Shown: positions 2,747-23,203 of the stretch, piece after piece
Layout of the letters: each line of letters begins with the position of its first letter
How positions within the stretch are numbered: the stretch's first letter is position 1
Assembly (NCBI GenBank): GCA_022566355.1
Contig: JADFJB010000001.1
Location: forward strand, 234 to 64,233
Direction: 5' to 3'
Length of the DNA stretch: 64,000 nucleotides
From: Candidatus Zhuqueibacterota bacterium
GTDB lineage: Bacteria; Zhuqueibacterota; JdFR-76; DREG01
The notes under the pieces: generated by a model
Told to the model about the DNA's origin: nothing
Databases searched by the model: none
Seen by the model: the letters and a program-made list of their open reading frames with translations, nothing else
Position numbers and translations under genes: made by a program

Positions 2747-3391
2747 CTATTTATGCTTATGTTCTTCTTCCTCCTCGAGTTCATGCTCAGCTCTAACGTA
2801 TTTAAACCGTAGGTTATTTCTTTTGTCGCCTATTTTTAGACTCACCACAGCATCAAAAGAGTCTACACCTTTTAAATTCACCTCGGCCTGGAAATAGGAA
2901 ACCTTCTCTTTGTCTCCCTCATGTATTTTTCCTTTTTCATGCTCTCCTTCTCCAGCGTGTTGCTTTCCTTCGCCTTCTTTATGCATCCCTTCCTTTTTAT
3001 GCTCTTCTTCCCCAGCGTGATGTTCTCCCTTGCCTTCTTTATGCATCTCCTCCTCATGCTCGGCTTCCTCGCCATGATGCGACTTCAGTTCCTCAGTGCT
3101 AGCAGCTAGCTTCAAAGTCTGCTTCGACTTATCCGGTAGGGTTAAATAGACCACACCTTCTACCTTATCGACTGATACCGGTTTGAGATTTGCGTCCAGA
3201 AGGTAAACGACGATGTTGCCTTTGTTATTTTCTCCCTCTACGACCAGGAACTCAACATGATGATCTCCCATAGAGCGTACCTGGCCGCCATGAGGAGACT
3301 CATGGGCATGCTGTGCCCAGGCCTTGCCTGAGAACAATGCCAGACTCACAAAAATTAAAGAGCCCACAGCTAAAGTTGTTGTTGTTTTCAT
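2747..3391 (-). CDS. secreted His/Glu-rich putative metal-binding protein downstream of czcA-like pump
   Basis: Signal peptide (MKTTTTLAVGSLIFVSLALFSGKAWA). Repeated HKEG.GEHHAGEEEH blocks and a C-terminal EEEEEHKHK tail. Same strand, 170 bp downstream of the RND gene. Confidence 0.6.
   Translation of the reverse strand: MKTTTTLAVGSLIFVSLALFSGKAWAQHAHESPHGGQVRSMGDHHVEFLVVEGENNKGNIVVYLLDANLKPVSVDKVEGVVYLTLPDKSKQTLKLAASTEELKSHHGEEAEHEEEMHKEGKGEHHAGEEEHKKEGMHKEGEGKQHAGEGEHEKGKIHEGDKEKVSYFQAEVNLKGVDSFDAVVSLKIGDKRNNLRFKYVRAEHELEEEEEHKHK
2930..3085. repeat. ~60-bp tandem repeat (about 2.5 units) inside His-rich gene
   Basis: tcctttttcatgctctccttctccagcgtgttgctttccttcgccttctttatgcatccct is followed by a near copy tcctttttatgctcttcttccccagcgtgatgttctcccttgccttctttatgcatctcc and a partial third. 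It encodes the repeated H/E-rich peptide blocks. Confidence 0.7.
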
Positions 3392-3564: not shown

Positions 3565-6500
3565 CTAAACAACTGCCAACCTTTTTTGTTCACTTTTTCT
3601 TTCCACCAGATAGTAAAAGACCGGCAAGGCCAGTAAGGTCAGGATTGTTGATGTGACCATGCCACCCACGATGACAATGGCAAGCGGTTTTTGCAGCTCA
3701 GCCCCGGAACCAGTGCTCAAAGCCAGTGGTAAGAGTCCCAAACCGGTGGTCAGTGCCGTCATCAAAACCGGGCTGATCCGGTCGCCGGCTCCTTCCAGAA
3801 TGGCCTCCAACAGCCCTTTGCCTTCTTGAAAACGAAGATCGTTAATATGGGTCACCAATATAATTCCGTTTCGGACAGCGATGCCAAGCAGCAAAATAAA
3901 CCCCACCAAAGAGGAAACACTCAAGACGCCGCCGGAAATAAAGATGCTGAAGACGCCGCCCACCAAGGCCAGGGGCAGATTCAACACGACCAGACCGGCC
4001 AATTTCCAGGTGCCTATGCTCATCTGCAGTAAAATGAATATAGCAGCGATTACGAAAACAGTTTCAATAAGCAGGAGTCGGGTCGCGCGCTGTTGACTCT
4101 CAAACTGCCCGCCGTAAGTGATGAAGTAGCCCTCCGGAAAAGATATCTGCTGGGCTACTCGATCTTGAACCTCTTCCACAAAACTACCCAGGTCTCTGTC
4201 CTGCACGTTGCACTGCACCACGATGCGGCGGGAGACGTTTTCCCTGTTGATGGTATTGGGTCCCATGCCGATTGTGATGTCCGCCACCCGCTTCAGGGGA
4301 ACTTTTGGGCCGGTTGGCGTGGAAATCCTCAGGTTCTCAAGCCGATCTATCTTGTTGCGATTCTCATCGTCTATCATCACTACCAAATCATACTGCCTTT
4401 GTCCAAGAACCACCTGGCTCACCACTTCACCATTGAAAGCCGTTTCTATAAAATGGGAAATATCTTGCACCGCCAGCCCGTACCGAGCGGCTTCCTTTCG
4501 GTTTATTTCAATTTTTAATTGGGGAATATCAATAAGTACTTGCGGTTCTACCTGCAGATCGGCCACACCTCGGACTTCTCTGACCACGCTGGCCACCTCC
4601 TGGGCTTTCTGCCGTAGAATGTTCAGGTCAGGGCCAAAGATTTTTATGGCGACCTGTGCCGTGACCCCTGACAGTAGGTGGTCGATGCGGTGCTGGATGG
4701 GCTGCCCGATACTGATTGCCACACCTGGAAACTGCCCCAGTATCTCTCGCATGTCTGCTAGCAGCTCCTCCCGGTTCTTCTCCCGCTCCTCCACCGGCAG
4801 AACGTTTACCAACATTTCGCCGTAGGAAACTCCTTCCGCGTGCTCATCCTGCTCAGCCCGACCTATGCGGTTGCTTGTAGAAGTTACTTCTGGGATCGTA
4901 TGAAGCGCTTCCTCCATTAGATAACCAATCCGCTGAGACTCTTCCAGGGAGGTACCCGGAGGTGATATCGAATTAACGACAAAAGTGCCTTCATCCAAAA
5001 TAGGGAGAAACTCTCTACCCATAAATGGAATCAGAAGAAGTGCAATCATGATTAGGGAAACTGATCCCAGAAGGACAAACTTGTTCCACTTCATCATAAA
5101 ATTCAAAATGGGTCTGTAGGCAGCCTTAACCCAACGGACTACAGGGCTTTCTTTGGTTTTGAGTTGCTTACCCCGGGTTAACATCAGGTCACACAATACC
5201 GGGACTACCGTCAATGCTACCAACAGAGAAGCTGCCATGGCTACCACTACTGCCAGACCCAAGGGGGAAAATAACCGACCTTCTATTCCGGTCAAGGTGA
5301 AAAGAGGAATAAAAACCAGGACAATAATCAAGGTAGCAAAAACAATGGAGGCCCGAATCTCATTGGACGCCCTCAGCACGACTTCGGTAGGGGTTTCCTT
5401 GGTTGGCTTGGCAAAATACTCCCGCAGTCGCCGGAAGATGTTCTCCACATCGATGATGCCGTCGTCCACGACCATGCCGATAGCAATAGCCAGTCCGGCC
5501 AGGGTCATGGTGTTCAATGTAAGTCCTTGCCAGTAAAGTACAATCACCGCTAAAATGAGAGACAGCGGAATGGCGGTTAAGGAAACGATTGAAGTCCGGA
5601 TATTGAATAAGAAGATCACCAAAATTAGAGTAACCAGTACAGCGCCCTCCATGAGGGCATCCTTGACCGTATTCACGGCTCGCTCTATCAAATCTGCTTG
5701 CACATATTCAGATTTTATCTTGACACCCTCGGGAAGCGAGAGCTCCAATTCCTCGAAGACATCTTTTATTTTCTTCGTTAGCTTAAAAGTATTAGTATTC
5801 GGCTGCTTGATCACCTTACCAAGTACCGTCTCAACGCCATTCAAAGATCCTGAACCCCGGCGGGCGATGGGACCGTGAATCCTCACATCAGCTACATCCT
5901 TGATGAGAATGGGAACACCGTTGTCCCGGGTATCGATGACAATATTTTCAATATCGGTCACGGTTCGAACCCGTCCCAGTCCTCGAATTAGAAATTCCTC
6001 CCGACGGTTCAAGAAAAAGCCGCCGGGTGTGTTCAGGTTATCCTTCTCCAGGGCTTCACGCACATCCGACAGACTTAAATCATAGGCCAAGAGGCGTCCC
6101 GGGTGCACCAGCACCTGGTACTGCTTGACGAACCCTCCCTGATTAATTACATTTGCGATGCCACCGGCGGCTTTCAGGCGAAATTGCACGATCCAATCCG
6201 CAATATCTCGCAGCTCCAGGGAGGAGAGTTTGCCGCTTTCATCCACCATGGCATATTCAACTATTTCACCGAGACGGGAGATAATAGGAGCCATAAAGGG
6301 CGCCTCCACTCCGTCGGGCAGTGTAGGAACTACCATCTGCAGTCTCTCGGTAACCATCTGGCGGGCGCGATAGATGTCGGTGCCCCACTCGAATTCCACA
6401 AATATTACAGATATCCCAACACCGGAAGAGGAACGCACCCGATTTACTAAAGGAACACCGTTGAATGCGCTCTCCAGAGGAAAAGTGACCAGAGTCTCTA

Positions 6501-6705
6501 CCTCCTCCGGGGCAAAACCCGGTGCCTCGGTCAGGATGGTCACCCTAGGGTCGTTGATATCCGGGTAGACATCAATGGGCAACTCTTGAAACACCTGGTA
6601 TCCCAGGATCAACACGGTAAATGCACTGGCGAGGATCAGCATTTTGTTTTTTAATGAAAAGGATATGATTTTAGACCACATTTTTATGTGTCTCCTTTCG
6701 TTCAA
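3565..6705 (-). CDS. czcA: HME-RND heavy-metal efflux permease, CzcA-like
   Basis: 1046 aa with 12-TM RND topology. N-terminal region (ELPIDVYPDINDPRVTILTEAPGFAPEEVE...) resembles the CzcA/CusA family. Operon with MFP and TolC-like genes. Confidence 0.8.
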   Translation of the reverse strand: MNERRHIKMWSKIISFSLKNKMLILASAFTVLILGYQVFQELPIDVYPDINDPRVTILTEAPGFAPEEVETLVTFPLESAFNGVPLVNRVRSSSGVGISVIFVEFEWGTDIYRARQMVTERLQMVVPTLPDGVEAPFMAPIISRLGEIVEYAMVDESGKLSSLELRDIADWIVQFRLKAAGGIANVINQGGFVKQYQVLVHPGRLLAYDLSLSDVREALEKDNLNTPGGFFLNRREEFLIRGLGRVRTVTDIENIVIDTRDNGVPILIKDVADVRIHGPIARRGSGSLNGVETVLGKVIKQPNTNTFKLTKKIKDVFEELELSLPEGVKIKSEYVQADLIERAVNTVKDALMEGAVLVTLILVIFLFNIRTSIVSLTAIPLSLILAVIVLYWQGLTLNTMTLAGLAIAIGMVVDDGIIDVENIFRRLREYFAKPTKETPTEVVLRASNEIRASIVFATLIIVLVFIPLFTLTGIEGRLFSPLGLAVVVAMAASLLVALTVVPVLCDLMLTRGKQLKTKESPVVRWVKAAYRPILNFMMKWNKFVLLGSVSLIMIALLLIPFMGREFLPILDEGTFVVNSISPPGTSLEESQRIGYLMEEALHTIPEVTSTSNRIGRAEQDEHAEGVSYGEMLVNVLPVEEREKNREELLADMREILGQFPGVAISIGQPIQHRIDHLLSGVTAQVAIKIFGPDLNILRQKAQEVASVVREVRGVADLQVEPQVLIDIPQLKIEINRKEAARYGLAVQDISHFIETAFNGEVVSQVVLGQRQYDLVVMIDDENRNKIDRLENLRISTPTGPKVPLKRVADITIGMGPNTINRENVSRRIVVQCNVQDRDLGSFVEEVQDRVAQQISFPEGYFITYGGQFESQQRATRLLLIETVFVIAAIFILLQMSIGTWKLAGLVVLNLPLALVGGVFSIFISGGVLSVSSLVGFILLLGIAVRNGIILVTHINDLRFQEGKGLLEAILEGAGDRISPVLMTALTTGLGLLPLALSTGSGAELQKPLAIVIVGGMVTSTILTLLALPVFYYLVERKSEQKRLAVV

Positions 6706-6725
6706 TCGAATTTAACAAACATATC

Positions 6726-7772
6726 TTAGTGGGCGTGGGGCTTACTCTCATCTTGTACCCCGCCCGCTTGAGGCCTTGTAACCACAGCTAAAAGCTGGTG
6801 GTTACCCTGGGTTACGACCGCATCTCCGGGAAACAGTCCATCTATAATCTCCACGTACAAATCATCACGAAATCCAGTCACCACATCCACTTTCTGGTAA
6901 ATTTCACCGTTCTCTACAAAAACAAACTTATCAGGGCCGACCTCAATCACCGCATCCACCGGCACCGCAATAGCTTCGGGATTGGATCCCACCACGATGG
7001 TCACTTCGCCAAACATCTCGGGCTTGAGCTTGCCATGCTTATTGTCCACATGCACCCATATCTGAGCTGCCCGTATATCCGGATCGAGGACTGAACTAAT
7101 AAAAATGATTTTACCTTCAAATATCTCATCCGGATAAGCATTTAGATGGATGCGCACCCGCTGCCCCATATTTAATAAAGGCACATAGTCCTCAAACACC
7201 TCACCTTCCACGATAACCATTGCAAGATCCATGATCTCAAAAAGCGGAGTAGAAGGATCTACGGAAGCTCCCATGGAAACCTTGCGCTGCACGATTGTGC
7301 CGGATATCGGGGCTGAAATGGATACCAGGGGAATGGGATTGCCGTAGCGGCGACTCTGTACTTCGGCTAACACCTGGCCCTTGGTTACTCGATCTCCCAT
7401 ATTGGCCAGTAAGTTTTCGACCCGGCCCTCGATGCGTGTGTTCACAAAGGCCACACGATTGGGATGTGGCCGTACGGTGCCAGGTACGCGAACAACTTGC
7501 TCTATATTTCGCAAATCGGCCACAACAATCTCAAGACCGATATTAATTTTTGCCTGTTCCGTTAAGCTTATGGTACCGGGATCTACTGCGTCATGGGCTT
7601 CCAGATTCGCCGAATTATCCCCGTTACTTTGAGCCGGGTTACTGCCAGCGCCGACTTTCATACCCATATAAAATGCAGCAGCCAGCAAAACAGGCACCAA
7701 AATAAGGGCCCAAACAGGCATACGAGCTTTCTCCGGATTTTCAAAAGTTTCTGTCATCGTATTGACCTCCAT
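6726..7772 (-). CDS. efflux RND periplasmic adaptor subunit (CzcB-like MFP)
   Basis: 348 aa with N-terminal TM anchor and beta-barrel/lipoyl adaptor motifs. Sits immediately upstream of the RND gene with a 21-bp gap. Confidence 0.8.
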   Translation of the reverse strand: MEVNTMTETFENPEKARMPVWALILVPVLLAAAFYMGMKVGAGSNPAQSNGDNSANLEAHDAVDPGTISLTEQAKINIGLEIVVADLRNIEQVVRVPGTVRPHPNRVAFVNTRIEGRVENLLANMGDRVTKGQVLAEVQSRRYGNPIPLVSISAPISGTIVQRKVSMGASVDPSTPLFEIMDLAMVIVEGEVFEDYVPLLNMGQRVRIHLNAYPDEIFEGKIIFISSVLDPDIRAAQIWVHVDNKHGKLKPEMFGEVTIVVGSNPEAIAVPVDAVIEVGPDKFVFVENGEIYQKVDVVTGFRDDLYVEIIDGLFPGDAVVTQGNHQLLAVVTRPQAGGVQDESKPHAH

Positions 7773-7801
7773 TAAAAATTATGCTAAAATGTACTTTCAA
7801 T

Positions 7802-9094
7802 CTATTCTCGAATATCAACCAGATTCCCACCAAGGACTTTATCCAGGTTGACGACCGCCAGGTTGAAACTATACAGGGCTTCCAGATAGGCTGTCTGAAT
7901 ATCAACCAAATTCCTCTGGGCTGTGATGACCTCGATAATTTCCGCCTCTCCCCGCTGGTAGGCTTCTTGAACCAAATCCATATTTTGTTCAGCCGTTTCC
8001 AGCATACCTTCTTCCAGAAGCTGCACCTCTTTAGAGGCCAGGAGCACTTCGGAATAAGCTGAGGCAACCTCCTTTTCAATCAGAAATTTCAGAAAAGAAT
8101 ATCTTGCTTCGGCTGTTCTTTCGCTAGCTAAAGACATTGCAATATCGCCCTGGTTCCTGTTGAATAGCTTGATAGGGAGGGAAATCATCGCGCCAAAATT
8201 GTTTTTGTCAAACTCCTTATTATATAAAACTGAAAATCTCAGGTTGGGAATTTTCAGAGAACGCGCCAAATTGATCTCGCTCTGCGCCGCCTCCTGCTCG
8301 AATTGCAGGGACTTCAGATCACGCCGATTTATTACAGCATAGGCTTTCAATCTTGCTACATCCACCTCAACAGGCTGGTAGGCCAATTCTTCTGAAGACG
8401 TGAACTCAGTCTCCCAGGGGCGCCCCATTAAGTTGTTTAATCTATACTTTGCGATCTTGAGTTGGTTTATCACCCTGGCCTTCTCACGGAGAGTTCTTTG
8501 TAGCTCAAGTTTGGCGAAGTTTACCTCAAATTGCGGAGCGTACCCGGCATTAAATTTGTCACTTGTTCGGTTTACCAGATCTTCGGTAAGTGAAATCACC
8601 CGATGTGCCAGATCCAATTTCTCTTGTTGCAGGAGAACCTGGTAGAAAGTCTCGCGGACATCTCCCACTAACATCCATTGTGCCCGACCTATCTCCGCCT
8701 CGACCTTCTCAATTGTGGATTGTGCTACCTGTTTACGGTGTCCTCGTTGACCACCAATCTCAAATTCTTGCGACACACTCAAGGAATACTCCGAAGTTTT
8801 TCCGACACGTTCCGATGGATTCGCATTAAAATAGGTGATCTCAAGTTCTGGATTGCTAGGAAATATCTTGGCCCCGGTTAACTGTCCTAAAGCAATCCCC
8901 AGACCTTCTCGTAAGGTTTTCAACTCCAGGTTATTTTTAACAGCTAGAGCGATAACCTGCTTAACTGAAAGCTGACTTACATTACCAACTGTACCTAATC
9001 TTTCCTGTGCCTGTGCAGGAATGTAAAGTGGTAACAATAGAGTCAAAAATAATTTCCAAAGGATCGTGCTTTTTATTTTCATTTTCTTCCTCAA
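7802..9094 (-). CDS. TolC-family outer membrane efflux protein (CzcC-like)
   Basis: 430 aa with signal peptide and two TolC-type repeat halves. First large gene of the czc-like operon. Confidence 0.8.
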   Translation of the reverse strand: MRKKMKIKSTILWKLFLTLLLPLYIPAQAQERLGTVGNVSQLSVKQVIALAVKNNLELKTLREGLGIALGQLTGAKIFPSNPELEITYFNANPSERVGKTSEYSLSVSQEFEIGGQRGHRKQVAQSTIEKVEAEIGRAQWMLVGDVRETFYQVLLQQEKLDLAHRVISLTEDLVNRTSDKFNAGYAPQFEVNFAKLELQRTLREKARVINQLKIAKYRLNNLMGRPWETEFTSSEELAYQPVEVDVARLKAYAVINRRDLKSLQFEQEAAQSEINLARSLKIPNLRFSVLYNKEFDKNNFGAMISLPIKLFNRNQGDIAMSLASERTAEARYSFLKFLIEKEVASAYSEVLLASKEVQLLEEGMLETAEQNMDLVQEAYQRGEAEIIEVITAQRNLVDIQTAYLEALYSFNLAVVNLDKVLGGNLVDIRE

Positions 9095-9305
9095 ATTTTT
9101 AATCTCATCTCCTTTTGTTGACGAGTCCGAAATGTTCCGCCCGTAAATTGTTCTTGTAAAAAGTTTTTTTATCGAAAATTTTTATAGATGTAGCATTTAA
9201 CCTTGGTCGCCAGATATAAACTAACTTACAAAATTCTAACAAATACAAAGCATGCACTTGTATAAACTACTGAACCGGCAACAGAAAAATGCGAATGAGA
9301 GATAT

Positions 9306-9728
9306 CTAAACTAGGGGAGGTGCATGTATTAGGTAGGAGAGGGCGTACTTGTCCCTTGTACGTAATCGAATTATTTTAAAAAGACCATTGAAATGGAAAT
9401 TTGGGGTTGATTCTATTGTTTCTAACCCACCTTTCGAAACCACACTTGATGAAAGAAAATGCTCAGTTTGTATGAGAGTGGGCAAATAAGAACTTCTGAC
9501 AAACAAAGTTAAGATCGTATTACAGCAAATATCTGCTTCCTGCCGTTGGTCATCATGATTATGCGGTGGTGTTCCATTTTCATGCTCATTATGTTCAGTG
9601 CTATGATGATCTTGAGGGGTTAACTCCATTGCTAAAGCAATGCCTTGCTCAAGCAGACAAGCTTGGGAACTTAGCAATAATATAAAAACTAAAAAAAAGA
9701 AAATTAATTTTGAGCGGGTTTTTTGCAT
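9306..9728 (-). CDS. small membrane-anchored/secreted His-rich protein with CC motif, hypothetical (CzcI-like position)
   Basis: 140 aa with hydrophobic N-terminus, HHSTEHNEHENGTPPHNHDD His-rich stretch and ICCN motif. 212 bp upstream of the TolC-like gene on the same strand. Confidence 0.45.
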   Translation of the reverse strand: MQKTRSKLIFFFLVFILLLSSQACLLEQGIALAMELTPQDHHSTEHNEHENGTPPHNHDDQRQEADICCNTILTLFVRSSYLPTLIQTEHFLSSSVVSKGGLETIESTPNFHFNGLFKIIRLRTRDKYALSYLIHAPPLV

Positions 9729-10030
9729 AATCTATAGTTATTTGCTAACCACTATTTTGTAGGCTGAAGTTAATCATTCTGTTAGAAAAAATCAAGCTAA
9801 CCTTCACTTCATAAATTCCAAATTTCGAGATATTGTCGTATAGTTTTACTTTTGGCCTGAAAGAATTTCTCTATAATGCCAATACGGACGATAGCCAGTC
9901 TTTTAACCGCAGTGGCAAAGTCACGGCAAACCATAACAGAAACTCAATCGATATCGTTGTTTGAGTAGTTTCGTTTCATGTTACCTTCTATAAGTCGTGT
10001 ATCCAATTTCGCTTTAAAAGAGATCGTGGT

Positions 10031-12655: not shown

Positions 12656-15109
12656 TTATAATACCAATTTTCTAAGTCTCAGTGCATTGACGATTACGGA
12701 AATAGAGCTAAAACTCATGGCTGCTGCAGCAATCATCGGGCTAAGTAATATTCCGAAGAACGGATAGAGAATACCGGCTGCAAGGGGCACACCCAAAGAG
12801 TTATAAATAAATGCCCAAAAGAGATTTTGACGAATGTTGCGCATCGTTCCGCGACTGAGTCGCCGAGCCCTTGCGATTCCTCTCAGATCGCCCTTCACGA
12901 GAGTTAATCCAGCGCTTTCGATAGCTACATCTGTGCCAGACCCCATGGCAATGCCCACATGTGCCTGGGCTAGTGCTGGCGCATCATTAATACCATCACC
13001 AGCCATTGCAACAATTCGTCCTTCGGATTGCAGTTGTTTAACCGTTTCATTTTTCATTTGCGGAAGCACTTCAGCTTCGACTTCATCAATTCCCAGAGTT
13101 TTTGCCACAAATTCTGCAGTCGTACGATTGTCGCCTGTCAACATGACGATTTTAATTCCCTCTTTGCGTAATAACTGAATTGCCTCCGGTGTGGATGGTT
13201 TTATCGGATCCGAAACACCCAACAAGCCGGCCGGTTTGTTATCGATTGCCACGAACATGACGGTTTCACCTTTTCGACGCATTTCCTCAGCCCTGTCGGT
13301 CAAATCGCCAAGTTGGATTTCCATTTCTTCAAAAAGTCTGCGATTACCCACAGCGACACTTCGGCCATCGATAGTACCGATAACGCCTTTGCCGGTGATG
13401 GAATCGAAATTTTCAACCGGTTTCAATTCTTGACCTCGTTTCCGTGCGCCGGTTACAATTGCTTCGGCTAATGGATGTTCGCTCGCTAGTTCCAGGCAAG
13501 CTGCCAATCGTAAGACCTCATCATCTCCATAGTCTTGCAAGCTTTCAATGCTGGTAAGCTTTGGCTTTCCTTCAGTAAGCGTGCCGGTTTTATCCACTAC
13601 CAGAGTGTCCACCTTTTCCATAGTCTCCAAAACTTCCGCATTTTTGATGAGGACGCCTGCCATTGCACCTCGCCCAGTGCCAACCATGATGGACATTGGC
13701 GTTGCCAGGCCCAATGCGCAAGGGCAGGCAATTATTAATACAGCAACTGCGTTTACCAGGGCGTAAGCCATACGCGGTTCCGGGCCCAATAATGACCATA
13801 TAATTGCAGTTAGGACACTAATAATTACTACTGCCGGCACGAAGTATGAAGCAACCTTATCTGCTAAGCCCTGAATGGGGGCGCGGCTTCGTTGCGCTTC
13901 ACTGACCATATGCACGATTTGTGCCAATAGGGTATCATTACCGATTCGTTGTGCTTCCATCACGAAGCTCCCTGTCCCGTTGACCGTCCCACCAATCACA
14001 TTCTGTCCGGATTCCTTTTGCACTGGAATGGATTCACCGGTTACCATGGATTCATCAACGGAACTGGTTCCATCGACTACAATCCCATCAACCGGAATTT
14101 TCTCACCGGGCCGAACGCGCAGTTTGTCGCCGCGTTGAACATGCTCCAGGGGAATGTCCTCTTCAACACCGTTATCCCGAACAATTCTCGCAGTATTGGG
14201 CGCCAGCCCCAGCAAGGCTTTTATTGCACTGTTGGTACGGCTTCTGGCCTTCAATTCCAAAACCTGGCCGAGAAGAACCAGTGTTGTGATTACAGCAGCC
14301 GCTTCAAAATAGACCGCTACTTCCCCTTCAGCGCCGCGGAAAGCGGCAGGGAAGATAGCCGGGAATAGCGTTGCTACCACGCTATAGATGTAGGCTACTC
14401 CAGTACCAATTGCGATTAGGGTAAACATATTAAGACTAAAATTAACAACAGAAGCCCAACCGCGTTGAAAAAAAGGCCAGCCTCCCCAGAGGACCACCGG
14501 CGATGCTAATATGAATTGAATCCAAATTAGAAGGTTTGCAGAGAATGCGTTTTGCACCGGCTTGCCAGGTATCACTTCGGACATAGCCAGAAAAAGCACG
14601 GGGATCGAAAGCCCAAAGCTTGCCCAGAATCGTCGGCTCATATCCTTTAGCTCCGGATTTTCCTCTTCATCCAAAACCACGGTTTTGAGTTCTAAAGCCA
14701 TCCCGCAAATCGGACAGATGCCGGGCTTGGATTGTACCACCTCCGGGTGCATGGGGCACGTATATCCTATTCTAGTTTGCTGTGTTACGGGTATTGCGGG
14801 TTCGAGGGACATGCCACATTTTGGACAAGATCCGGGTTCATTCTGTTCCACCTCAGGATCCATAGGGCAGGTATAAGTGACGCCTTTCATTGCTTTTTGA
14901 GTGTCTTGATGATGTTCATGCTCCACCTGTTCATGTTGCTCAACTTTGGTTGTGGTGAATGCTTCCGGATCCGATTTGAATTTTTCCAGGCAGTTTTGAG
15001 AGCAAAAATAGATGGATTCACCTTGGTAAGGAATGAAACCTGCGGCGGATGCGGGAGAAACTTCCATGCCGCAAACCGGATCTAATGTTTTAACTTTTAA
15101 GAATTGCAT
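12656..15109 (-). CDS. copA: copper-translocating P1B-type ATPase with N-terminal TRASH/YHS-like and two CPxxPEV...CPxCGM metal-binding modules
   Basis: CPC transmembrane motif ([13 protein letters not shown]), DKTGTLT phosphorylation site, GDGINDAP. N-terminal CGMEVSPAS...[23 protein letters not shown] and CPMHPEV..CPICGM modules. Confidence 0.9.
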
Positions 15110-15723: not shown

Positions 15724-18700
15724 TTAACTTGACTTCAAAACAGCAGAATCTGCCTGATCGATTTGATCTTCAATATTTTTGTTTAATCCGCGACTTCGCC
15801 ACAAAAAATAAATAGTAGGAATTACTAATAAACATAATATTGTCGTAGAAAATAGCCCTCCAACCATAGGGGCGGCGATTCGTTTCATCACCTGGGAACC
15901 GGCGCCATGGCCCCACATGATTGGTAGCAACCCAAGAATGGTTGTTGAAACAGTCATAACAATTGGCCGAATTCGCATAGCAGTTGCCTTCAGTATGACT
16001 TCTTTAAGATCTTGAAGGGAATGCAATTTGCCTTTCCGGTCATTGTAAGCATGATCCAGGTAGGTTAGCATGATAATGCCAATTTCCGCCGAGAGGCCGG
16101 CAAGCGCTATAAATCCAACTCCAACAGCAACGCTCAGGTTATAGTCGAGCAGATATATAAACCAAATACCACCGACGAGAGAAAACGGCAGCGACAACAT
16201 GACAATAAAGCTTTCTTGTATATTTTTAAAGTTGAGATAAAGCAGCAAAAAAATAATCAACAGGGTTACAGGGAGTACGATACGTAAGCGCTGTTGAGCT
16301 CGCACCATGTATTCATATTGTCCGCTCCAAACCAGGCTGTAGCCTTCAGGGAAATCTACCTCTTCTTCCACGACAATTTTAGCATTTTTCACATAAGTTC
16401 CCACATCAATATCGCGAATATCAATATACAGCCAGGCGGTACGTCGGGCGTTCTCACTTTTGATTACCGACGGACCTTTCTTGAATTCAATGTCTGCAAC
16501 GTAATTGATTGGGATCTGGGCGCCTGTGGGTGTGGCAATAAGCACCCGGCGCAGATCATCCAGATTATCTCTCAACTCCCGGCTGTAGCGCACATTTACC
16601 GGGTAACGCTCCAGACCTTCAACCGTCCACGTCACATTCATGCCGCCAATGGCCGACATTATCACATCCTGAATTGCACCTACTGTTAGGCCATATCTTG
16701 CAGCTTCCTCCCGATTAATGGTAAAATCCAGGTAATTTCCGCCCACAGTCTTGTCGGCAAAAACGCTGAGCGTTCCGGGGACATTTTTTACTACGGTAGC
16801 CACCCTTTGCGCCAGATCTGACAATACTTTAAGATCCGAACCCATAAGCTTAATACCCACCGGCGTCTTGATCCCCGTTGCCAGCATATCGATTCGTGTC
16901 TTGATCGGCATGGTCCATGCGTTTGTTAATCCAGGAAACTGGATGGATTGGTCCAGTTCTTCGATCAGTTTTTCAATCGTCATTCCCTCTCGCCACTCAT
17001 TCTCCGGCTTCAGCGTAATAGTTGTTTCGATCATCGAGAGCGGCGCTGGATCTGTGGCGGTCTCGGCGCGTCCGATTTTACCAAAGACATGGTGCACTTC
17101 CGGAAAGCTTTTGATGATTTTATCTGTCTGCTGCAAAAGCTCTTTTGCCTTGGTAATGCTGATACCTGGATCTGTAGTGGGCATGTAGAGCAAGTCTCCT
17201 TCATTTAGCGGCGGCATGAATTCCGATCCGATTCGCTGGAATGGTAAAATCGAAACAACCATGACTACAATTGCGACAATAATCGTCGACCACTTGAAGC
17301 GTAACACGAAATTGATCAAAGGTCGGTAGATTCGTATGAGAAACCGATTGATGGGGTTGACGTCCTCTGGTTTGATCCGGCCTTTGATCCAAAAACCCAT
17401 TAATACCGGTACAACGGTGATAGCTAACAAGGCAGACGCCGCCATAGCGTAGGTTTTTGTGAATGCAAGGGGGCTAAATAACCTTCCCTCCTGGGCCTGT
17501 AAAGTAAAGACTGGCAGAAAGGAAAGTGTTATGATCAACAAAGAATAAAACAGCGCCGGCCCAACTTCCTTAGCGGCATCGATGATAATAAGCCAATGAT
17601 CTTTCTTGCCGCCGTCTCTTTCGATATGTTTATGCGCATTCTCGATCATCACGATTGCCGCATCAACCATAACACCGATGGCTATGGCAATTCCGCCAAG
17701 AGACATGATGTTTGCAGTAATACCCTGGTAGGACATTATAATAAAAGCGATCAAAATTCCCATTGGCAGTGTAAATATGGCTACAAAAGCGCTGCGGAAA
17801 TGTAACAGAAAGATGATACATACCAGGGCGACGATAATAATTTCCTCGATCAGTTTGCGAGTAAGGTTATCGATTGCTTTATTGATCAACACAGATCGAT
17901 CATATGCTGCTTTGATGGTAACTCCGGGCGGCAGACCTTTCTTTAATTCTTCCATTTTTTCTTTTACAAGATCAATGGTTGCCAATGCATTTCCGCCAAA
18001 CCGCATTACGATGATGCCGCCGACAACTTCCCCCTCGCCATTCCAATCTGCTAAGCCGCGCCTTAATTCCGGACCAATGGAAACATTGGCAATGTTTTTG
18101 ATGAGTATCGGGGTGCCATGATTATCCACGCCCAATGGAATATTTTCCAAATCCTGTATAGACTTAATATATCCCAGTCCGCGCACCATAAATTCTGTTT
18201 CCCCGAATTCGACAAGGCGGCCGCCAACATCGTTATTACTGCTCTTGATCGCCATTCGAACTTTGCTGATAGAAATATTATATGCTGCGAGTTTGTTGGG
18301 ATCGACTTCGACCTGGTATTGTTTTACATAGCCGCCGATACTTGCTACTTCAGCAACTCCCGGTACGCTCATCAATTCATAACGCAGATACCAGTCCTGG
18401 ATCGAACGCAGCTGCTGCAGATCATACTGGTTGCCGCCATCCAACACGTATTCATAGATCCAACCTACGCCGGTTGCATCGGGTCCAAGTGTTGGATTTA
18501 CTCCCTGTGGTAGACGGCTGGAAACGAAATTCAAATATTCTAAAACCCGGCTGCGCGCCCAGTATAGATCAGTGCCATCCTCAAATATGATATAGACAAA
18601 TGAAAGGCCAAAGAAAGAATACCCCCGTACAGCCTTGGCAAAAGGCACCGCCAACATAGCGCTGGTAAGTGGATAGGTCACCTGGTCTTCCACCAACTGC

Positions 18701-18873
18701 GGCGCCTGTCCTGGATATTCCGTAAGAATGATTACCTGGACGTCGCTTAAATCCGGTATTGCGTCCACTGGCGTGTTGAGCAATTTATAAATACCGCCGA
18801 GAGCGATCATTATTGTGAAAATAATAACTAAAAAACGATTTTTTACTGAAGCTTCTATGATTCGTTCTATCAT
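15724..18873 (-). CDS. cusA: Cu(I)/Ag(I) HME-RND efflux permease CusA
   Basis: 1049 aa. AIPDLSDVQVIILTEYPGQAPQLVEDQVTYPLTSAMLAVP...FEDGTDLYWARSRVLEYLN...LGPDATGVGWIYEY is near-colinear with E. coli CusA by recall. Confidence 0.9.
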   Translation of the reverse strand: MIERIIEASVKNRFLVIIFTIMIALGGIYKLLNTPVDAIPDLSDVQVIILTEYPGQAPQLVEDQVTYPLTSAMLAVPFAKAVRGYSFFGLSFVYIIFEDGTDLYWARSRVLEYLNFVSSRLPQGVNPTLGPDATGVGWIYEYVLDGGNQYDLQQLRSIQDWYLRYELMSVPGVAEVASIGGYVKQYQVEVDPNKLAAYNISISKVRMAIKSSNNDVGGRLVEFGETEFMVRGLGYIKSIQDLENIPLGVDNHGTPILIKNIANVSIGPELRRGLADWNGEGEVVGGIIVMRFGGNALATIDLVKEKMEELKKGLPPGVTIKAAYDRSVLINKAIDNLTRKLIEEIIIVALVCIIFLLHFRSAFVAIFTLPMGILIAFIIMSYQGITANIMSLGGIAIAIGVMVDAAIVMIENAHKHIERDGGKKDHWLIIIDAAKEVGPALFYSLLIITLSFLPVFTLQAQEGRLFSPLAFTKTYAMAASALLAITVVPVLMGFWIKGRIKPEDVNPINRFLIRIYRPLINFVLRFKWSTIIVAIVVMVVSILPFQRIGSEFMPPLNEGDLLYMPTTDPGISITKAKELLQQTDKIIKSFPEVHHVFGKIGRAETATDPAPLSMIETTITLKPENEWREGMTIEKLIEELDQSIQFPGLTNAWTMPIKTRIDMLATGIKTPVGIKLMGSDLKVLSDLAQRVATVVKNVPGTLSVFADKTVGGNYLDFTINREEAARYGLTVGAIQDVIMSAIGGMNVTWTVEGLERYPVNVRYSRELRDNLDDLRRVLIATPTGAQIPINYVADIEFKKGPSVIKSENARRTAWLYIDIRDIDVGTYVKNAKIVVEEEVDFPEGYSLVWSGQYEYMVRAQQRLRIVLPVTLLIIFLLLYLNFKNIQESFIVMLSLPFSLVGGIWFIYLLDYNLSVAVGVGFIALAGLSAEIGIIMLTYLDHAYNDRKGKLHSLQDLKEVILKATAMRIRPIVMTVSTTILGLLPIMWGHGAGSQVMKRIAAPMVGGLFSTTILCLLVIPTIYFLWRSRGLNKNIEDQIDQADSAVLKSS

Positions 18874-18971
18874 GTTAGATTTCTCCGTGTGTCCATTGTA
18901 CTGAAAGATTCCATTTCTTCGAGAGACTGTGTGAAAATGGGAATAATTTTTATTACGATTCTAAAAGAACG

Positions 18972-19080
18972 CATGTCATTCCATAGGCTGCGTCCTGAGT
19001 GAAGTCGAAGGAAATCTTGTTATGGTTTGTGTAAGGTGTTGTTTTTTAACAAAGATCCAGTCACACGACGGGATGACATG
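18972..19080. repeat. structured intergenic repeat, copy B
   Basis: Terminal inverted repeat catgtcattcc ... cgacgggatgacatg. Shares ggaaatcttgtta with copies A/D, cgacgggatgacat with copy D, and core cctgagtgaagtcgaagg with copy C. Confidence 0.55.
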
Positions 19081-19168
19081 TGTCGGACTTTTTAAATTAT
19101 GTGATGATTCCATTAAACTTCGTGGTTAAAATAGTTTTCACACAGTAATCAGCGATAGAATAGCTGTT

Positions 19169-20716
19169 TCAGTGATTATGTTCTTTCGATTCCATGTTCT
19201 GCATGTTTTCCATCTCTTTCTTTTCTTTTGTTGCGCTATCTTGCGTATCCATTGGCTGTGTTTTTTTCTGTTTCTCAGCTAACAATTTTTGAATAACTTC
19301 TTGTAAGCGGCTTTCACTGTCAAGTAGAAACTGCGCTGAAATAACAACTTCTTCATTTCCAATGAGGCCGGAGATCACGCGGATTTTTCCGTTATCTCCT
19401 TCTTCTCCTAGTTTTACCTGCCGTGGTTCAAATTTTCCTTCACCCCGAACAACAAAAATCACATTTCGAGTGCCAGACCGTATGACCGCTTCGGATGGTA
19501 TGATTACAGCATCTTTTATGGTAGGAGTCTGGATTTCTATATTCGCATACATACCAATCTTTAGCTCCAGAACCGGATTGGAAAAATCAAGGCGGACATG
19601 AGCAGTCCGTGATTTCTCGCGAAGATATGGGTAGATATAAGCGACTCTACCATGGAAAATCTTTCCAGGCAGGTAAGAAAGCTCCATTTTTGCTTCCGCC
19701 CCTTCCCGAATCCATGGCAATTCATAGTCATAAATACTTGCGTGAACCCAGATACTGGACAAATCTGCAATTTCATATAAATTTGTACCCGCCTTAACAT
19801 GAAGGCCTTCAACAGCATTCTTTTGCACCACCATTCCACTTGCCGGCGATTCCAGCCTGATTGTTTTCTTTACTTCGCCGGTCTTTTCTAATCGATCAAT
19901 TTCTGATTTAGGAACATCCCAGTAGAGAAGACGTTGTCGGCTTGATTCAAAAAGTGACTCCGAGTTTCTTGTAATCGAATCAAAAGTGCTCTTGGCTAGT
20001 TTCTTCCGGTTCTCAAGAGCCAACAAGAATTCTTGCTGGGTGATCACTAGCTCCGGTGAATAAATTTCGAGGAGAGGCTCTCCTTTACGAACCATCTCTC
20101 CTACGTAATTCACAAATAGCTTTTCGATCCAACCGGAAATTTTGGTGGTTACAATATATAGTTTTTCTTCATTGTACTGGATCTTTCCCACCGTTCGGAT
20201 GGAACGGGTAAAATCTCCGCGTTCAACCATGGTGGTTCGAACACCCATGTTTTGTACAGTTACCGGGTCAATTTTTATATAACCACCAGCGCCAAGAGTT
20301 GTCTGGTCTTCATAGACTGGGATCAAGTCCATTCCCATCTTCGATTTCCCTGACTCGTCGTATATTTCAGTTGGATCCATGGGAGCTTGCCAATACAATA
20401 CTTTGCGCTCACCTTTCGATTGTGTATCTTGAATTTCAGATTCCCCAGAAGTAATCCTTACCGGAACAAGATCCATCTTGCATATAGGACATTGACCGGG
20501 TTCATGCAACAGAACTTCCGGATGCATTCCGCATGTCCATAACTGGCTCTCTTCCTGATGTTCCATCGCTGCCATTTCTGTGGTTTTTTCCTCTGAACCA
20601 CAACTGGATAAGCTTACAATTAACCCGAAAAGAAGTGGAATGGAAAGAAAGGTTAATGCCCTTACTGATAAGTTTGATTTATTTTTCATTCTGTACTCCA
20701 TTAATTTGATTGTCAT
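19169..20716 (-). CDS. cusB: efflux RND periplasmic adaptor CusB-like with N-terminal CxxPEV...CPxC metal-binding module
   Basis: 515 aa with signal/lipo region, then CGMHPEVLLHEPGQCPICKMDLV, then MFP beta-barrel/lipoyl domains. 4-bp overlap with upstream TolC gene. Ends in TGA. Confidence 0.8.
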   Translation of the reverse strand: MTIKLMEYRMKNKSNLSVRALTFLSIPLLFGLIVSLSSCGSEEKTTEMAAMEHQEESQLWTCGMHPEVLLHEPGQCPICKMDLVPVRITSGESEIQDTQSKGERKVLYWQAPMDPTEIYDESGKSKMGMDLIPVYEDQTTLGAGGYIKIDPVTVQNMGVRTTMVERGDFTRSIRTVGKIQYNEEKLYIVTTKISGWIEKLFVNYVGEMVRKGEPLLEIYSPELVITQQEFLLALENRKKLAKSTFDSITRNSESLFESSRQRLLYWDVPKSEIDRLEKTGEVKKTIRLESPASGMVVQKNAVEGLHVKAGTNLYEIADLSSIWVHASIYDYELPWIREGAEAKMELSYLPGKIFHGRVAYIYPYLREKSRTAHVRLDFSNPVLELKIGMYANIEIQTPTIKDAVIIPSEAVIRSGTRNVIFVVRGEGKFEPRQVKLGEEGDNGKIRVISGLIGNEEVVISAQFLLDSESRLQEVIQKLLAEKQKKTQPMDTQDSATKEKKEMENMQNMESKEHNH

Positions 20717-22011
20717 TTTCCCATTGCAAAATCACCGCCAACCGCACGTTCAAGCGCTGCCACTTGTTTGCAATAGTTGGCTTGTTCATTGGTATATGCC
20801 AATCGAAGTTGTAGAAGCATACGTTCTGCATCCAGTAAATTGAGAAAATCCAGTTTGCCGGTTTGGTACGCAGCAATGGCTGATTGCAAACTGCTCTCCG
20901 CTTGCGTAAGTAAACCCTGTTCGTACAAATCCAAAATTTCTGCCAGTGTTTTTATTTGAAAAATTAGGTCTGCAACCTCAGCTTGAACATGATTCATCAA
21001 GTTCTCATAGCTTAAATTCTGTGCCAGGATATTCTCTTCGGCCTGGTTCACACCAGCTTTTCTACCGCCTAACCATATAGGCAGGTTAATACCAACCAAG
21101 ATACCGAAAGGATCTTTACCTGAATCCGAAAATGAATTGTTTACCTTAGGAATTGTAATGTAAGTGGCTTGAATATTGAAATCCGGGTAGTAATTTTTTT
21201 TCGCCAATCTTTTGGCGAACTCAGCCTTTCGGATCATCGATTGATTGGCAAGCAGTTCTTGGCGCTGTGCAAGAGCCCGCTGCAATAATTGATTTTCATT
21301 GAGTTGAATCCTGCATGAATCGATCACCACAACGAGTCCAATGGGCGCATTCACTGGTTGATCCAACAAGGCATTCATTCTTGTTACCACGCCTGTTCGC
21401 ATTTTATCAAAGTTGAGTTGTTTAACGATGATGTTTGAAATTTCCACATGGGCTTTTAGTACTTGCGCCTGGATGCCTTGTCCGGTACTGTATCTTGTTG
21501 TAGCTACCTGGGCGAAATCACGGAGTAGATCAAGATATTGGTCGAGTATTTGTTTTGAACGGTCAACTTTGTAAAGATTGAAATAAGTAGTCTTTACTTT
21601 GAAAATCACATCACGGCGAACTGCACTCAGGTGATATTGGGCCGCTTCAGCATCCTGGTTGGCAATCTCACCTTTAAGACCAAGTTTGCCTGGAAACGGA
21701 ATGCGCTGTGTCAGCATGAATACATTTTCTTGCGGTCCAACTCGTGTTTCCACATTCTCTATCCACCTGGTATAACTTAACATTGGATCTGGCAGGGTAG
21801 AGACCTGGCTCGGAATATTGAGAAAAGCCAAGTAGCGTTTCTCAGCTGCTTGAATGGCAGGATTGTTCTGTGCAGCCTCTTGAATCAAATAGTTTAAGGA
21901 TACCGGGGCCTTGGTTTTCAAGTCACTTGCACCCGTTTTTCCCTGGGCACTAATTTGCCAGGGAATCCAAATCCCTGAAATCAAAAATAAATAGAAATAA
22001 ACTCGAAGCAT
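20713..22011 (-). CDS. TolC-family outer membrane efflux protein (CusC-like)
   Basis: 432 aa with signal peptide and TolC repeat structure. ATGA overlap with cusB-like gene. Confidence 0.8.
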   Translation of the reverse strand: MLRVYFYLFLISGIWIPWQISAQGKTGASDLKTKAPVSLNYLIQEAAQNNPAIQAAEKRYLAFLNIPSQVSTLPDPMLSYTRWIENVETRVGPQENVFMLTQRIPFPGKLGLKGEIANQDAEAAQYHLSAVRRDVIFKVKTTYFNLYKVDRSKQILDQYLDLLRDFAQVATTRYSTGQGIQAQVLKAHVEISNIIVKQLNFDKMRTGVVTRMNALLDQPVNAPIGLVVVIDSCRIQLNENQLLQRALAQRQELLANQSMIRKAEFAKRLAKKNYYPDFNIQATYITIPKVNNSFSDSGKDPFGILVGINLPIWLGGRKAGVNQAEENILAQNLSYENLMNHVQAEVADLIFQIKTLAEILDLYEQGLLTQAESSLQSAIAAYQTGKLDFLNLLDAERMLLQLRLAYTNEQANYCKQVAALERAVGGDFAMGK

Positions 22012-22149
22012 TTTTTCTCCTTCGATTTAACTTCATTAACTAAAATAATGAGATGAGTAACCACACAAACAATATGTGCATGGTCACGATAAATTTATGT
22101 TTTGAAAAAAATCAGATAAAAAAGGATGTAGTACACCCCGGGGAGAGTT

Positions 22150-22536
22150 TCAATTCAAAAAGGAGCAGAAGTAGAGGAAAAGGTGATCTTCAGTTAAAAA
22201 ATTCAAGAAATGCTGATCATAACGAAAATTGAGAATATTTGGGTTATGAGAAGTTAATTGTGGATCATTGTGAAGACAAATAATTAGCTTTTGATTGAAT
22301 GTCTTAATTACAGCTTTCTGAATAGGAAGTTGTTGATCCTGGGCGCTTTTTGACTCAATATTGCAACATTCTTTATGACATTCAGATTGCTGGGCACAGC
22401 AACTATGACTTTTTGCTGTTTGGAAATTTAAGAAACCTGCAAAGCAATTTAATGGAATAAAGAAGAGTAGATTAGTTGCGATTAAAAAGGCTGCAATTAA
22501 TTTACAATTGAGAGATTTTTGGTTTTGTTTTGGCAT
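22150..22536 (-). CDS. small membrane-anchored Cys-rich protein, hypothetical (possible metal-binding/regulatory)
   Basis: 128 aa with N-terminal TM and SHSCCAQQSECHKECCN cluster. 139 bp upstream of the cusC-like gene, same strand. Architecture parallels 9306-9728. Confidence 0.45.
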   Translation of the reverse strand: MPKQNQKSLNCKLIAAFLIATNLLFFIPLNCFAGFLNFQTAKSHSCCAQQSECHKECCNIESKSAQDQQLPIQKAVIKTFNQKLIICLHNDPQLTSHNPNILNFRYDQHFLNFLTEDHLFLYFCSFLN

Positions 22537-22862
22537 TCTTAATTTAGTTTGAACAGAAAAGTTGTCTTTATTATTTCATTGTTTCAATCTATTGTGTGAA
22601 AAACGGATTTTCAAATGATTTTAAGTTTTTGAATTTACTTTGTGTTTGAAAATAAGAGATTGATGAAAAATAAAGCCCGGGGGTCTTAAAGATATCCAGG
22701 ATATGCCACCAAAATATTTTTGGTTGGATAGCTTTGATGAGAGGGTTATGTTAATAAGACAGCATCAATATTTACTTATTTTGTTTTATAGGGTAGCATT
22801 CAGTATAAATTTGAGACTAACTTGTCCTCAAAATATTTAATTTGTAAACTACTTCAAAGTCC

Positions 22863-22946
22863 CCTGTTGAGAGGCTGTTGTAGAATACACATATCTGGCG
22901 AAATGTCATTTTTGGATACATTTTGCAACAGCCTGTTGAGAGAGGG
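22863..22946. promoter_or_regulatory. paired palindromic/direct motif in cus-operon upstream region (candidate operator)
   Basis: cctgttgagaggctgttg (22863-22880) and caacagcctgttgagagaggg (22926-22946) share direct cctgttgagag and inverted gctgttg/caacagc. ~390 bp upstream of the small Cys-rich gene. Confidence 0.3.
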
Positions 22947-23203
22947 ATTTAGGAGTGTTTCGTGAAAAAATTCATATAAAATTAGGAGTTTCTTAGATCC
23001 TGAGGCTTAAAAGACGGATACCAGATCCAGATGCCGGATAATATCATTTATACTCTACTACTATCGTCCGTTGTCTATCGTCTATCGTTAAAAGTCTATA
23101 TTTTGAATCCGGCATCCGGCATCCGGCATCCGACATCTGGGTGGAGCGGGTGTGAGTTCTGGTATCCGGTACCTGTCATACAGCATCCAGCATCTGATAT
23201 TCC

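Follow-up and report, generated by a model that had tools for sequence, protein, structure and literature searches.

An open reading frame (ORF) at the head of a heavy-metal efflux operon, ORF1, probably encodes a cis-acting, metal-sensing leader peptide of the CutF/CruR type, and a second one at the head of another such operon, ORF2, most likely encodes a proline-less derivative of the same device; we put the probability of this reading at roughly 0.6. Both genes lie in a 64,000-nucleotide (nt) stretch, hereafter the window, of a metagenome-assembled genome (MAG) contig from candidate division KSB1 (Candidatus Zhuqueibacterota). Each is followed by genes for an outer membrane efflux protein (OEP), a membrane fusion protein (MFP) and a CusA/CzcA-family resistance-nodulation-division (RND) pump, czcCBA-like after ORF1 and cusCBA-like after ORF2 (Table 1). 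Both OEP genes belong to PF02321, and both pumps score above the TIGR00914 cut-off (in the czcCBA-like operon, 936.7 bits versus a cut-off of 701, along with a TIGR01730 match). ORF1 is identical to MCH8124351.1, a "hypothetical protein" of candidate division KSB1, and ORF2 carries no name in any annotation source checked. The earlier note on this DNA had placed the two ORFs here, upstream of the TolC-like genes of two RND operons, and this was borne out: both are on the minus strand, with gaps to the OEP gene of 211 to 223 nt and 138 nt, respectively. It had also given each an N-terminal hydrophobic segment, which the Kyte-Doolittle analysis recovered (one segment each, following a basic N terminus; best 19-residue means, 2.64 for ORF1 and 2.08 for ORF2), and a hydrophobic C-terminal half, which it did not: beyond the N terminus the 19-residue maximum is only ~1.1 in ORF1 and ~0.8 in ORF2, with no second membrane-like segment. 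The common architecture that it described is visible in the distance from the vicinal cysteine pair (CC) to the C terminus, 71 amino acids (aa) in ORF1 and 70 aa in ORF2.

Compared with its relative P0002, ORF1 shows 76% identity at equal length, with zero indels and a ratio of nonsynonymous to synonymous substitution rates (dN/dS) of ~0.44. ORF2 is 65% identical to P0004, likewise of equal length and free of indels, and the nucleotide differences fall mainly at third codon positions (64, versus 36 and 19 at positions 1 and 2). At the P0004 locus, the order small ORF-OEP-CusB-CusA is kept; sequence searches with ORF2 find only P0004 and P0003, the latter identical to ORF2. Given the preserved length and frame and the third-position excess of changes, ORF1 and ORF2 are genuine coding genes, not chance ORFs. 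Their GC content is 0.32 to 0.35, versus 0.43 to 0.50 in the adjoining genes.

A HMMER search of 1.84 billion representative sequences, with ORF1 and ORF2 concatenated as the query, returned 41 matches. Thirty-nine of them match ORF1 end to end (134 to 176 aa, mostly ~140 aa; E values down to 1e-25), one is ORF2, and one is a spurious repeat protein. The last, P0008 (1633 aa), was rejected as a relative of ORF2 after inspection of its repeat units, its E value of 6.5e-18 being the sum of weak matches across 11 repeats. The ORF1 family comprises about 40 clusters of ~140-aa proteins from KSB1 and Calditrichaceae. A family profile search of a 5.8-billion-protein set gave 33 proteins, for which candidate division KSB1 was the sole organism name, and a scan of genome contigs with a narrow back-translated pattern gave four loci, in Calditrichaceae MAGs.

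In a 40-sequence alignment of the family (A3), invariant or near-invariant columns occur at three places only. The first is the end of the N-terminal anchor, where Cys24 is invariant and E27 is at least 90% conserved. The second is the putative sensor, in which H56, H58, and C68 are at least 90% conserved and C69 is invariant. The third comprises the last 18 residues, where R123, R125, D126, Y128, A129, L130, L133, L134, H135, A136, P137, and P138 are invariant or at least 90% conserved, giving the tail consensus RxRDKYALSCLLHAPPxx-stop, that is, 16 residues and then 2 more before the stop codon. Between residues 70 and 122 there is no invariant or near-invariant column at all, and the spacing from CC to HAPP is nonetheless 64 to 68 aa in 36 of the 40 members. 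A proline pair (PP) is present in all 40 aligned members, at P137-P138 of the 140 residues in ORF1, and is followed by exactly two residues in 28. The core reads HAPP in 38 members, NAPP in one, and RSPP in one (P0037); RSPP is also found in P0057, and both proteins with Arg in place of His come from a TonB-receptor context (P0037 at locus L020 and P0057 at L014).

The tail codons differ synonymously among family members, and RNAalifold returned no consensus structure; selection on the tail thus appears to act at the level of the peptide. An RNA element in the RDKYAL codons, suggested by the biased string AGG GAT AAG TAC GCC and by a relic at loci L098 and L032 (see below), was considered and rejected for the ORF1 family on the same grounds, namely, zero consensus pairs and synonymous codon variation. 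AlphaFold2, run with the family alignment, gave a confident helix for residues 2 to 36 only (predicted local distance difference test score [pLDDT], 80 to 97); pLDDT falls below 50 for residues 62 to 124, and the predicted template modeling score is 0.27. ORF1 is therefore predicted to be disordered beyond its N-terminal helix, from residue 36 on.

Neither ORF1 nor ORF2 had a match above the cut-off in Pfam or NCBIfam, and the same scans gave no match to the CusF model (PF11604) or another chaperone family. Weak matches of the ORF1 family to ZrgA, DmeF, and UreE in a wider family scan were rejected as His-rich composition, and a match of ORF2 to the ArsD-related VcpD (19 bits versus a cut-off of 90) was rejected as an effect of CC pairs. 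DUF6660, a Bacteroidota family considered as a possible home, was also discarded: it had no Pfam match at E values up to 10 and is unmentioned in the literature searched.

Table 1. Positions in the window of the two small genes, their parts, and the operons that they precede
Feature	Position	Strand	Description
ORF1	9306..9728	-	140 aa; leader ORF of the czcCBA-like operon; contains HHSTEHNEHENG...ICCN
ORF1 residues 7-24	9657..9710	-	KLIFFFLVFILLLSSQAC; putative export signal or N-in/C-out anchor, ending in Cys24; near-invariant LxEQ next
ORF1 residues 41-70	9519..9608	-	Putative metal-sensing motif, with a His-rich stretch and a vicinal Cys pair; consensus in the family, PSHxHDxxGxExxFCCDN
ORF1 residues 71-120	9369..9518	-	Linker or tether; length kept, zero conserved residues
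ORF1 residues 121-138	9315..9368	-	RLRTRDKYALSYLIHAPP; putative ribosome-arrest segment; two codons separate it from the stop
ORF1-OEP spacer	9095..9305	-	211 nt to a TTG start; 223 nt to an ATG with a GAGGAAG Shine-Dalgarno sequence
czcCBA-like genes	3565..9094	-	Putatively regulated; OEP 7802-9094, MFP 6726-7772, CusA/CzcA-family RND pump 3565-6705
ORF2	22150..22536	-	128 aa; leader ORF of the cusCBA-like operon; contains SHSCCAQQSECHKECCN
ORF2 residues 12-36	22429..22503	-	Hydrophobic putative export signal or anchor; P0004 has an identical NLLFFIPLNCFAGFL, with Cys31 as its last residue
ORF2 residues 44-59	22360..22407	-	HSCCAQQSECHKECCN; Cys cluster, five Cys kept in P0004; second CC 70 aa from the C terminus
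ORF2 residues 104-128	22153..22227	-	FRYDQHFLNFLTEDHLFLYFCSFLN; conserved C-terminal tail without PP, kept in P0004 despite many synonymous changes
Hairpin after ORF2	22123..22139	-	7-bp hairpin GGGGUGUACUACAUCCU, then U6; terminator-like; begins 11 nt after the ORF2 stop
cusCBA-like genes	15724..22011	-	Putatively regulated; OEP 20713-22011, CusB-like MFP 19169-20716, CusA/CzcA-family RND pump 15724-18873

Three groups of published systems bear on the role of ORF1. CutF of Rhodobacter capsulatus is exported cotranslationally, senses periplasmic Cu through a CxxxC motif, and has a C-terminal PPP as its stall site; stalling there opens a stem-loop that covers the Shine-Dalgarno sequence of the next gene, which encodes a multicopper oxidase (PMC9973294; bioRxiv 10.1101/2025.02.05.636593). 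By the published definition, a CutF-like protein is shorter than 150 aa, carries a signal peptide, has PP among its final 15 residues, and has a neighbor on the same strand within 1 kb (PMC9973294, Ozturk et al. 2023), and the 5,334 proteins so collected have an RND OEP gene as their commonest neighbor, with TonB-like genes second (PMC9973294). Measured against this definition, ORF1 has 140 aa, a putative N-terminal signal (hydropathy 2.64 after a basic N terminus and an AlphaFold2 helix at residues 2 to 36), P137-P138, and an OEP gene at 211 to 223 nt; like CutF-like genes, it stands first, carries a Cys/His motif and a PP near its end, and is followed by an OEP gene. It differs from CutF in having a vicinal CC with a His cluster, HAPP after a 12-residue conserved segment, and a spacing of ~65 aa; moreover, the window has no evident stem-loop shielding a Shine-Dalgarno sequence. 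KSB1/Calditrichota is not among the phyla named in the CutF-like survey (PMC9973294). ORF2 agrees in its 128 aa and 138-nt spacer and lacks the PP.

CruR (DUF2946; Bp2923 of Bordetella pertussis) heads a TonB-receptor operon, binds Cu via CXXC, and arrests at RAPP three residues before its end (PMC9426467, Roy et al. 2022). The 45-aa distance from one motif to the other is conserved within 1 to 2 residues and is functionally required; CruR controls Rho-dependent termination in a long spacer and is predicted to be poorly structured (PMC9426467). The ORF1 family resembles it as an upstream ORF (uORF) of metal operons, including TonB receptors at L014 and L020, with a fixed motif spacing and a candidate arrest motif 2 to 3 residues from the end. 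The long spacer, the predicted lack of structure, and RNA rich in C and poor in G toward the end of the ORF, where CruR has its rut site, are further likenesses. In CruR, however, CXXC and RAPP are 45 residues apart versus ~65 between CC and HAPP, the ORF1 family has no CXXC, and the signal peptide of CruR is dispensable for regulation.

The third group consists of the RAPP/RGPP arrest peptides (ApdA, ApdP, ApcA, SecM-like; PMC10951233, Morici 2024; PMC12992588), which share with ORF1 a C-terminal x-A/G-P-P core in a small secretory protein encoded upstream of the regulated gene. A survey lists 530 RAPP and 415 RGPP proteins, small and mostly equipped with signal peptides, that are encoded upstream of TolC-family genes (PMC12992588, Fujiwara 2025); WP_045033083.1 ends in ...GLRAPPLV, compared with ...LIHAPPLV in ORF1. 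The ORF1 profile aligned with six RAPP/RGPP proteins encoded upstream of TolC or TonB-receptor genes (supplement of PMC12992588) at an hhalign probability of 91.7% (E = 7.8e-7) in the signal-to-Cys region, a score that composition may inflate given that the match spans the signal peptide and the His-rich region. With one Bacteroidota protein ending in ...GLRAPPLV, the probability was 46%, over the sensor motif alone. HAPP is unmentioned in the main text of PMC10951233 and PMC12992588. We file ORF1 in the CutF-like/RAPP-type functional class of metal uORFs and not in Pfam DUF2946.

The mRNA around the putative arrest site and stop codon of ORF1 (9267-9396) is 27 to 32% C and 13% G, and the ORF1-OEP spacer is 89% identical at L002 apart from two indels. 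A stem-loop shielding the Shine-Dalgarno sequence was rejected for both spacers of the window, which fold no better than shuffled sequences (z = 0.46 for ORF1 and z = -1.16 for ORF2). The strongest partners of the Shine-Dalgarno sequence of the OEP gene after ORF1 are AU-rich stretches, probably nonspecific. In three relatives, with the downstream gene 190 to 290 nt away, the codons for (R/H)(S/A)PP are the best Shine-Dalgarno complement in the whole ORF and spacer (L014 8400-8423, L020 6021-6044, and L022 4389-4412), with duplexes of 12, 9, and 11 bp, respectively. These pairings suggest that the ribosome-binding site is masked from a distance and would be exposed by a stalled ribosome, an arrangement like that of CutF.

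We propose the following course of events for ORF1. The N-terminal signal or anchor would take the nascent chain to the Sec translocon, and the ribosome would pause at RxRDKYALSYLIHAPP, its P site occupied by P137 and its A site by P138. The PSHxHD..CC motif, 65 to 68 residues back on its length-conserved linker, would then be just clear of the tunnel and the membrane channel. By the usual estimate the exit tunnel holds 30 to 40 residues, and crossing the membrane takes extra length; a spacing of ~65 aa would suffice for the sensor to lie beyond the translocon. Binding of metal, or Cys oxidation and folding without metal, would alter the pull on the chain and with it the duration of arrest. 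The time in arrest would set OEP-MFP-RND expression, either by shielding C-rich, G-poor RNA from Rho, as for CruR, or by freeing the downstream ribosome-binding site, as for CutF. A-P-P is a strong polyproline pause triplet, and arrest at HAPP may be of this type, may depend on the upstream RDKYALSCLL segment, or may involve a lineage-specific ribosome. For ORF2, pausing during termination at a stop codon 11 nt before the hairpin and U-tract could act as an attenuator.

Genes of the ORF1 family come first in every context examined, with spacers of 110 to 330 nt. They precede OEP-MFP-RND genes in the window and at L027 (a member 31% identical to ORF1), a SusC-like TonB-dependent receptor with a SusD-like gene at L014 and L020, a spermine-synthase-like membrane protein of ~800 aa surrounded by YHS, Cu-ATPase, cupredoxin, and Ccm genes at L016 and L018, and small YHS proteins at L022 and L026. 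Since the genes downstream are unrelated to one another, the family fits a portable front-end module and not a component of RND pumps. The expectation in the earlier note that such genes would accompany RND operons in other genomes therefore held in part: the synteny was found (at L027 and, for ORF2, at P0004), but the ORF1 family also precedes TonB receptors, YHS proteins, and spermine-synthase-like genes. Two side observations concern these loci. Immediately upstream of the ORF1-like leader, L016 and L018 have a 114-aa P-II-like gene (PF00543; 7445-7789 and 7605-7949, respectively), and an ~800-aa spermine-synthase-like protein is also encoded last in the TonB-receptor operons of L014 and L020.

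Several observations weigh against ORF1 and ORF2 as leader peptides of this kind. A single conserved sensor and arrest module heads both efflux and uptake-like operons, which would call for opposite output logic. The Arg of RAPP, which in ApcA, ApdA, ApdP, and SecM no residue can replace (PMC12992588), is His in 38 of the 40 ORF1-family members. ORF1 has no match to DUF2946 (PF11162) even at E values up to 10; only 6 of 40 relatives match it, weakly (11.7 to 15.6 bits against a cut-off of 23.7) and in the N-terminal half, and comparison with 13 proteobacterial DUF2946 proteins gave an hhalign probability of 3.7%. The possible inflation of the 91.7% match to RAPP/RGPP proteins belongs here as well, as do the ordinary fold of the ORF1-OEP spacer relative to shuffles and the weak pairing of the window's PP codons with the OEP Shine-Dalgarno sequence (-6.5 kcal/mol, exceeded by 64 of the 198 segments compared). 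As for ORF2, it has no PP and no proline at all in its last 15 residues, and sequence and profile searches found no significant similarity outside its own small group. Moreover, the hairpin after its stop lacks the U-run at L001, and the number of terminator-like sites is not above that in shuffled sequence.

Nine of the 128 residues of ORF2 are Cys, and the RNA is C-rich and G-poor through the 3' half of the gene. With its conserved tail, a stop codon close to a hairpin, and this base composition, a leader or attenuator role for ORF2 is plausible. Further relatives were sought by synteny, with the OEP neighbor of ORF2 (OEP2) as the query of a metagenome scan, which gave 77 loci. Three loci whose OEPs are 52 to 55% identical to OEP2 and that have usable upstream DNA (L031, L032, and L098) all contain a small Cys-rich ORF. 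The tail motif F-[CS]-[ST]-[FL]-L-x-stop is common to ORF2, P0004, and the small ORFs of L098 and L032, and that of L031 ends differently. The distance from CC to the C terminus is 70 to 71 aa in this group (71 aa at L098), as in ORF1. Right after the TGA stop codon, the in-frame codons of L098 (285-305) and L032 (105-125) read (Y/S)TPSRDKYAL(T/S); in a six-frame translation of 558 kb, RD[KRQN][YF]A[LI] is otherwise found only inside ORF1-family genes. The small ORF of L031 reads through the equivalent DNA as TVEKYVLNASFLM, and in the DNA alignment the post-stop hairpin of the window overlies the RDKYAL relic of L098 and L032. These sequences suggest that the arrest segment of an ORF1-type ancestor was lost on the way to ORF2-type genes, and ORF2 is probably a derived or degenerate, proline-less version of the ORF1 device. 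Read-through of TGA, or selenocysteine, in ORF2-type genes was rejected, the downstream in-frame peptides being unconserved past the relic.

CzcI of Cupriavidus metallidurans, to whose position the earlier note had likened that of both genes, has been assigned to the CutF-like network as a variant that lacks the proline motif, and OEP is the commonest downstream neighbor of that class (PMC9973294); in drawing this comparison the note headed in the right direction. CzcI, a small protein encoded before czcCBA and a suggested metal-sensing regulator, is the closest published analogue of ORF2, which is likewise proline-less; the likeness rests on position and the published description. ORF1 differs from CzcI in carrying the proline motif. 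At more distant OEP loci, probably from other phyla, small ORFs with a signal peptide and Cys/His residues were also seen (L078 186-572, L084 1892-2293, L100 1721-2122, and L087 1920-2306), with ends reading ...DPRPPQS, ...DIRPPINI, ...DIKPPKPPIYLSIG, and ...GSPPVSLSQVYCVYRI; by their sequences these appear to be ordinary CutF-like leaders, and the arrangement looks to be a general one.

The earlier note had called ORF1 and ORF2 paralogous, and direct comparison did not bear this out: BLASTP gave E = 2.7, and hhalign probabilities stayed at 0.03 to 0.3% when ORF1 was represented by a 40-sequence profile or ORF2 by a 5-sequence one. Detectable paralogy was accordingly rejected, BLASTP and three hhalign comparisons all being nonsignificant. 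True paralogy beyond the reach of such comparisons, with a premature stop cutting the arrest segment off an RDKYAL..HAPP leader and so giving rise to ORF2-type genes, is a tentative possibility that we rate somewhat short of even. The two genes share their operon position and layout, including the nearly equal CC-to-C-terminus distance, and the post-TGA codons of L098 and L032, the read-through of L031 as TVEKYVLNASFLM, and the alignment of the window's hairpin over the relic all point this way. Furthermore, the top hhalign pairings, although nonsignificant, are those expected of such a history (FCCDN with KECCN and RDKYALS with VEKYVLN). Nevertheless, the protein-level statistics are null (E = 0.2 to 2.7; probability <1%), and the relic occurs in two related loci only, effectively one event. 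From residue frequencies we estimate that ~0.5 occurrences of the 6-residue pattern would arise by chance in 558 kb; what makes the relic notable is its position and frame. Only ~9 of 15 bases match between the window hairpin and the relic.

An explanation of a different kind would make ORF1 and ORF2 stable periplasmic accessories that bind metal and are lipidated or anchored in the membrane: CusF-like chaperones, buffers, or CzcI-type trans regulators acting on the RND pump. The N-terminal anchor ends in a Cys whose context is loosely lipobox-like in the ORF1 family (SQAC, PNAC, and LQAC), and TIGR01781, a spirochaete lipoprotein signal, matches weakly (E = 0.13). The His/Cys-rich motifs, the first-gene position shared with CzcI (PMC9973294), and, in ORF2, the Cys content together with the missing proline arrest motif also favor it. 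We nonetheless consider such accessories unlikely. No CusF or chaperone family matches, and the ORF1 family is predicted to be disordered past residue 36; a 50-residue body that is unconserved yet fixed in length is hard to square with a folded metal binder. Moreover, the best-conserved element is a 16-residue tail with PP two residues before the stop, and the unrelated downstream genes point to a portable regulatory module and not to the partner of one pump. Of the metal-sensing/chaperone or regulatory family proposed in the earlier note, the regulatory metal sensor of the CutF-like/CruR class is thus the part that we retain, whereas a stable chaperone is disfavored by the predicted disorder after the N-terminal helix and by conservation confined to the sensor motif, linker length, and tail. 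Finally, the notion that ORF1, ORF2, or both are functionless chance ORFs in AT-rich promoter or spacer DNA, for which one could cite their low GC content, the absence of any family annotation, and the lack of a name for ORF2, is effectively refuted and barely credible given the length and frame kept in diverged relatives, the third-position excess, the ~40-cluster full-length ORF1 family with E values down to 1e-25, and a residue conservation pattern specific to a peptide.

Metal-sensing arrest-peptide uORFs were recognized in 2022 to 2023 and have been studied in two Proteobacteria, as CruR and CutF. As a leader peptide of this class, ORF1 adds a lineage-specific member to a kind of regulator that was described recently and is nothing categorically new; the locus would widen the class to candidate division KSB1/Calditrichota, with one portable module before efflux pumps, TonB-dependent receptors, and YHS proteins. 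The natural Arg-to-His variant of RAPP, the longer tether, and the PP-less derivative offer handles on how a nascent chain reports metal to the ribosome. For annotation, "hypothetical protein" genes such as MCH8124351.1 and unnamed ORFs such as ORF2 before heavy-metal RND operons become candidate regulators and not structural parts of the pump. A bolder version, in which HAPP after RxRDKYALSCLL is a new arrest core, the 65-residue tether makes ORF1 a true across-membrane metal sensor, and the ORF2 type is a second, proline-free generation that stalls at its stop codon beside an attenuator, is in our judgment quite improbable; if the HAPP core and the stop-codon stalling were real, a single genome would hold two mechanistically distinct metal-responsive leader peptides.

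The 667-nt AT-rich spacer upstream of ORF2 (22537-23203) contains CCTGTTGAGAG twice (at 22863 and 22932), an imperfect 31-nt inverted repeat (22856-22886 and 22920-22950), and GGATGCC-type repeats (23107-23140). The reverse complement of an 11-mer of this spacer, ACGGACGATAG, is found near 9894, ~165 nt upstream of ORF1. These repeats and the common 11-mer are possible operators or repetitive extragenic palindrome-like elements. An operator common to ORF1 and ORF2 was rejected, as a single 11-mer is shared and its estimated chance expectation is ~0.1.

The first 27 kb of the window form a metal-resistance island. Between the two RND operons lies a gene for an 817-aa heavy-metal P-type ATPase (12656-15109, minus strand), whose N terminus has three Cys-rich metal-binding modules, one C-G-M-E/C..C and two CPMDPEV/CPMHPEV...CP.CGM. 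DUF302, DedA-like, SnoaL-like, and DUF2231-fusion genes flank the ATPase gene. The database records of the window list a P-type ATPase as MCH8124355.1 and an RND pump as MCH8124357.1. The final gene of the czcCBA-like operon (2747-3391, minus strand) encodes a 214-aa signal-peptide protein that matches no family in Pfam or NCBIfam and whose C-terminal half is extremely rich in His, Glu, and Lys. Its N-terminal half resembles proteins of 133 to 144 aa (KATLKV...MVDLYL...GMKMG...FMN[ST]LD) encoded directly upstream of OEP homologues at many metagenome loci.

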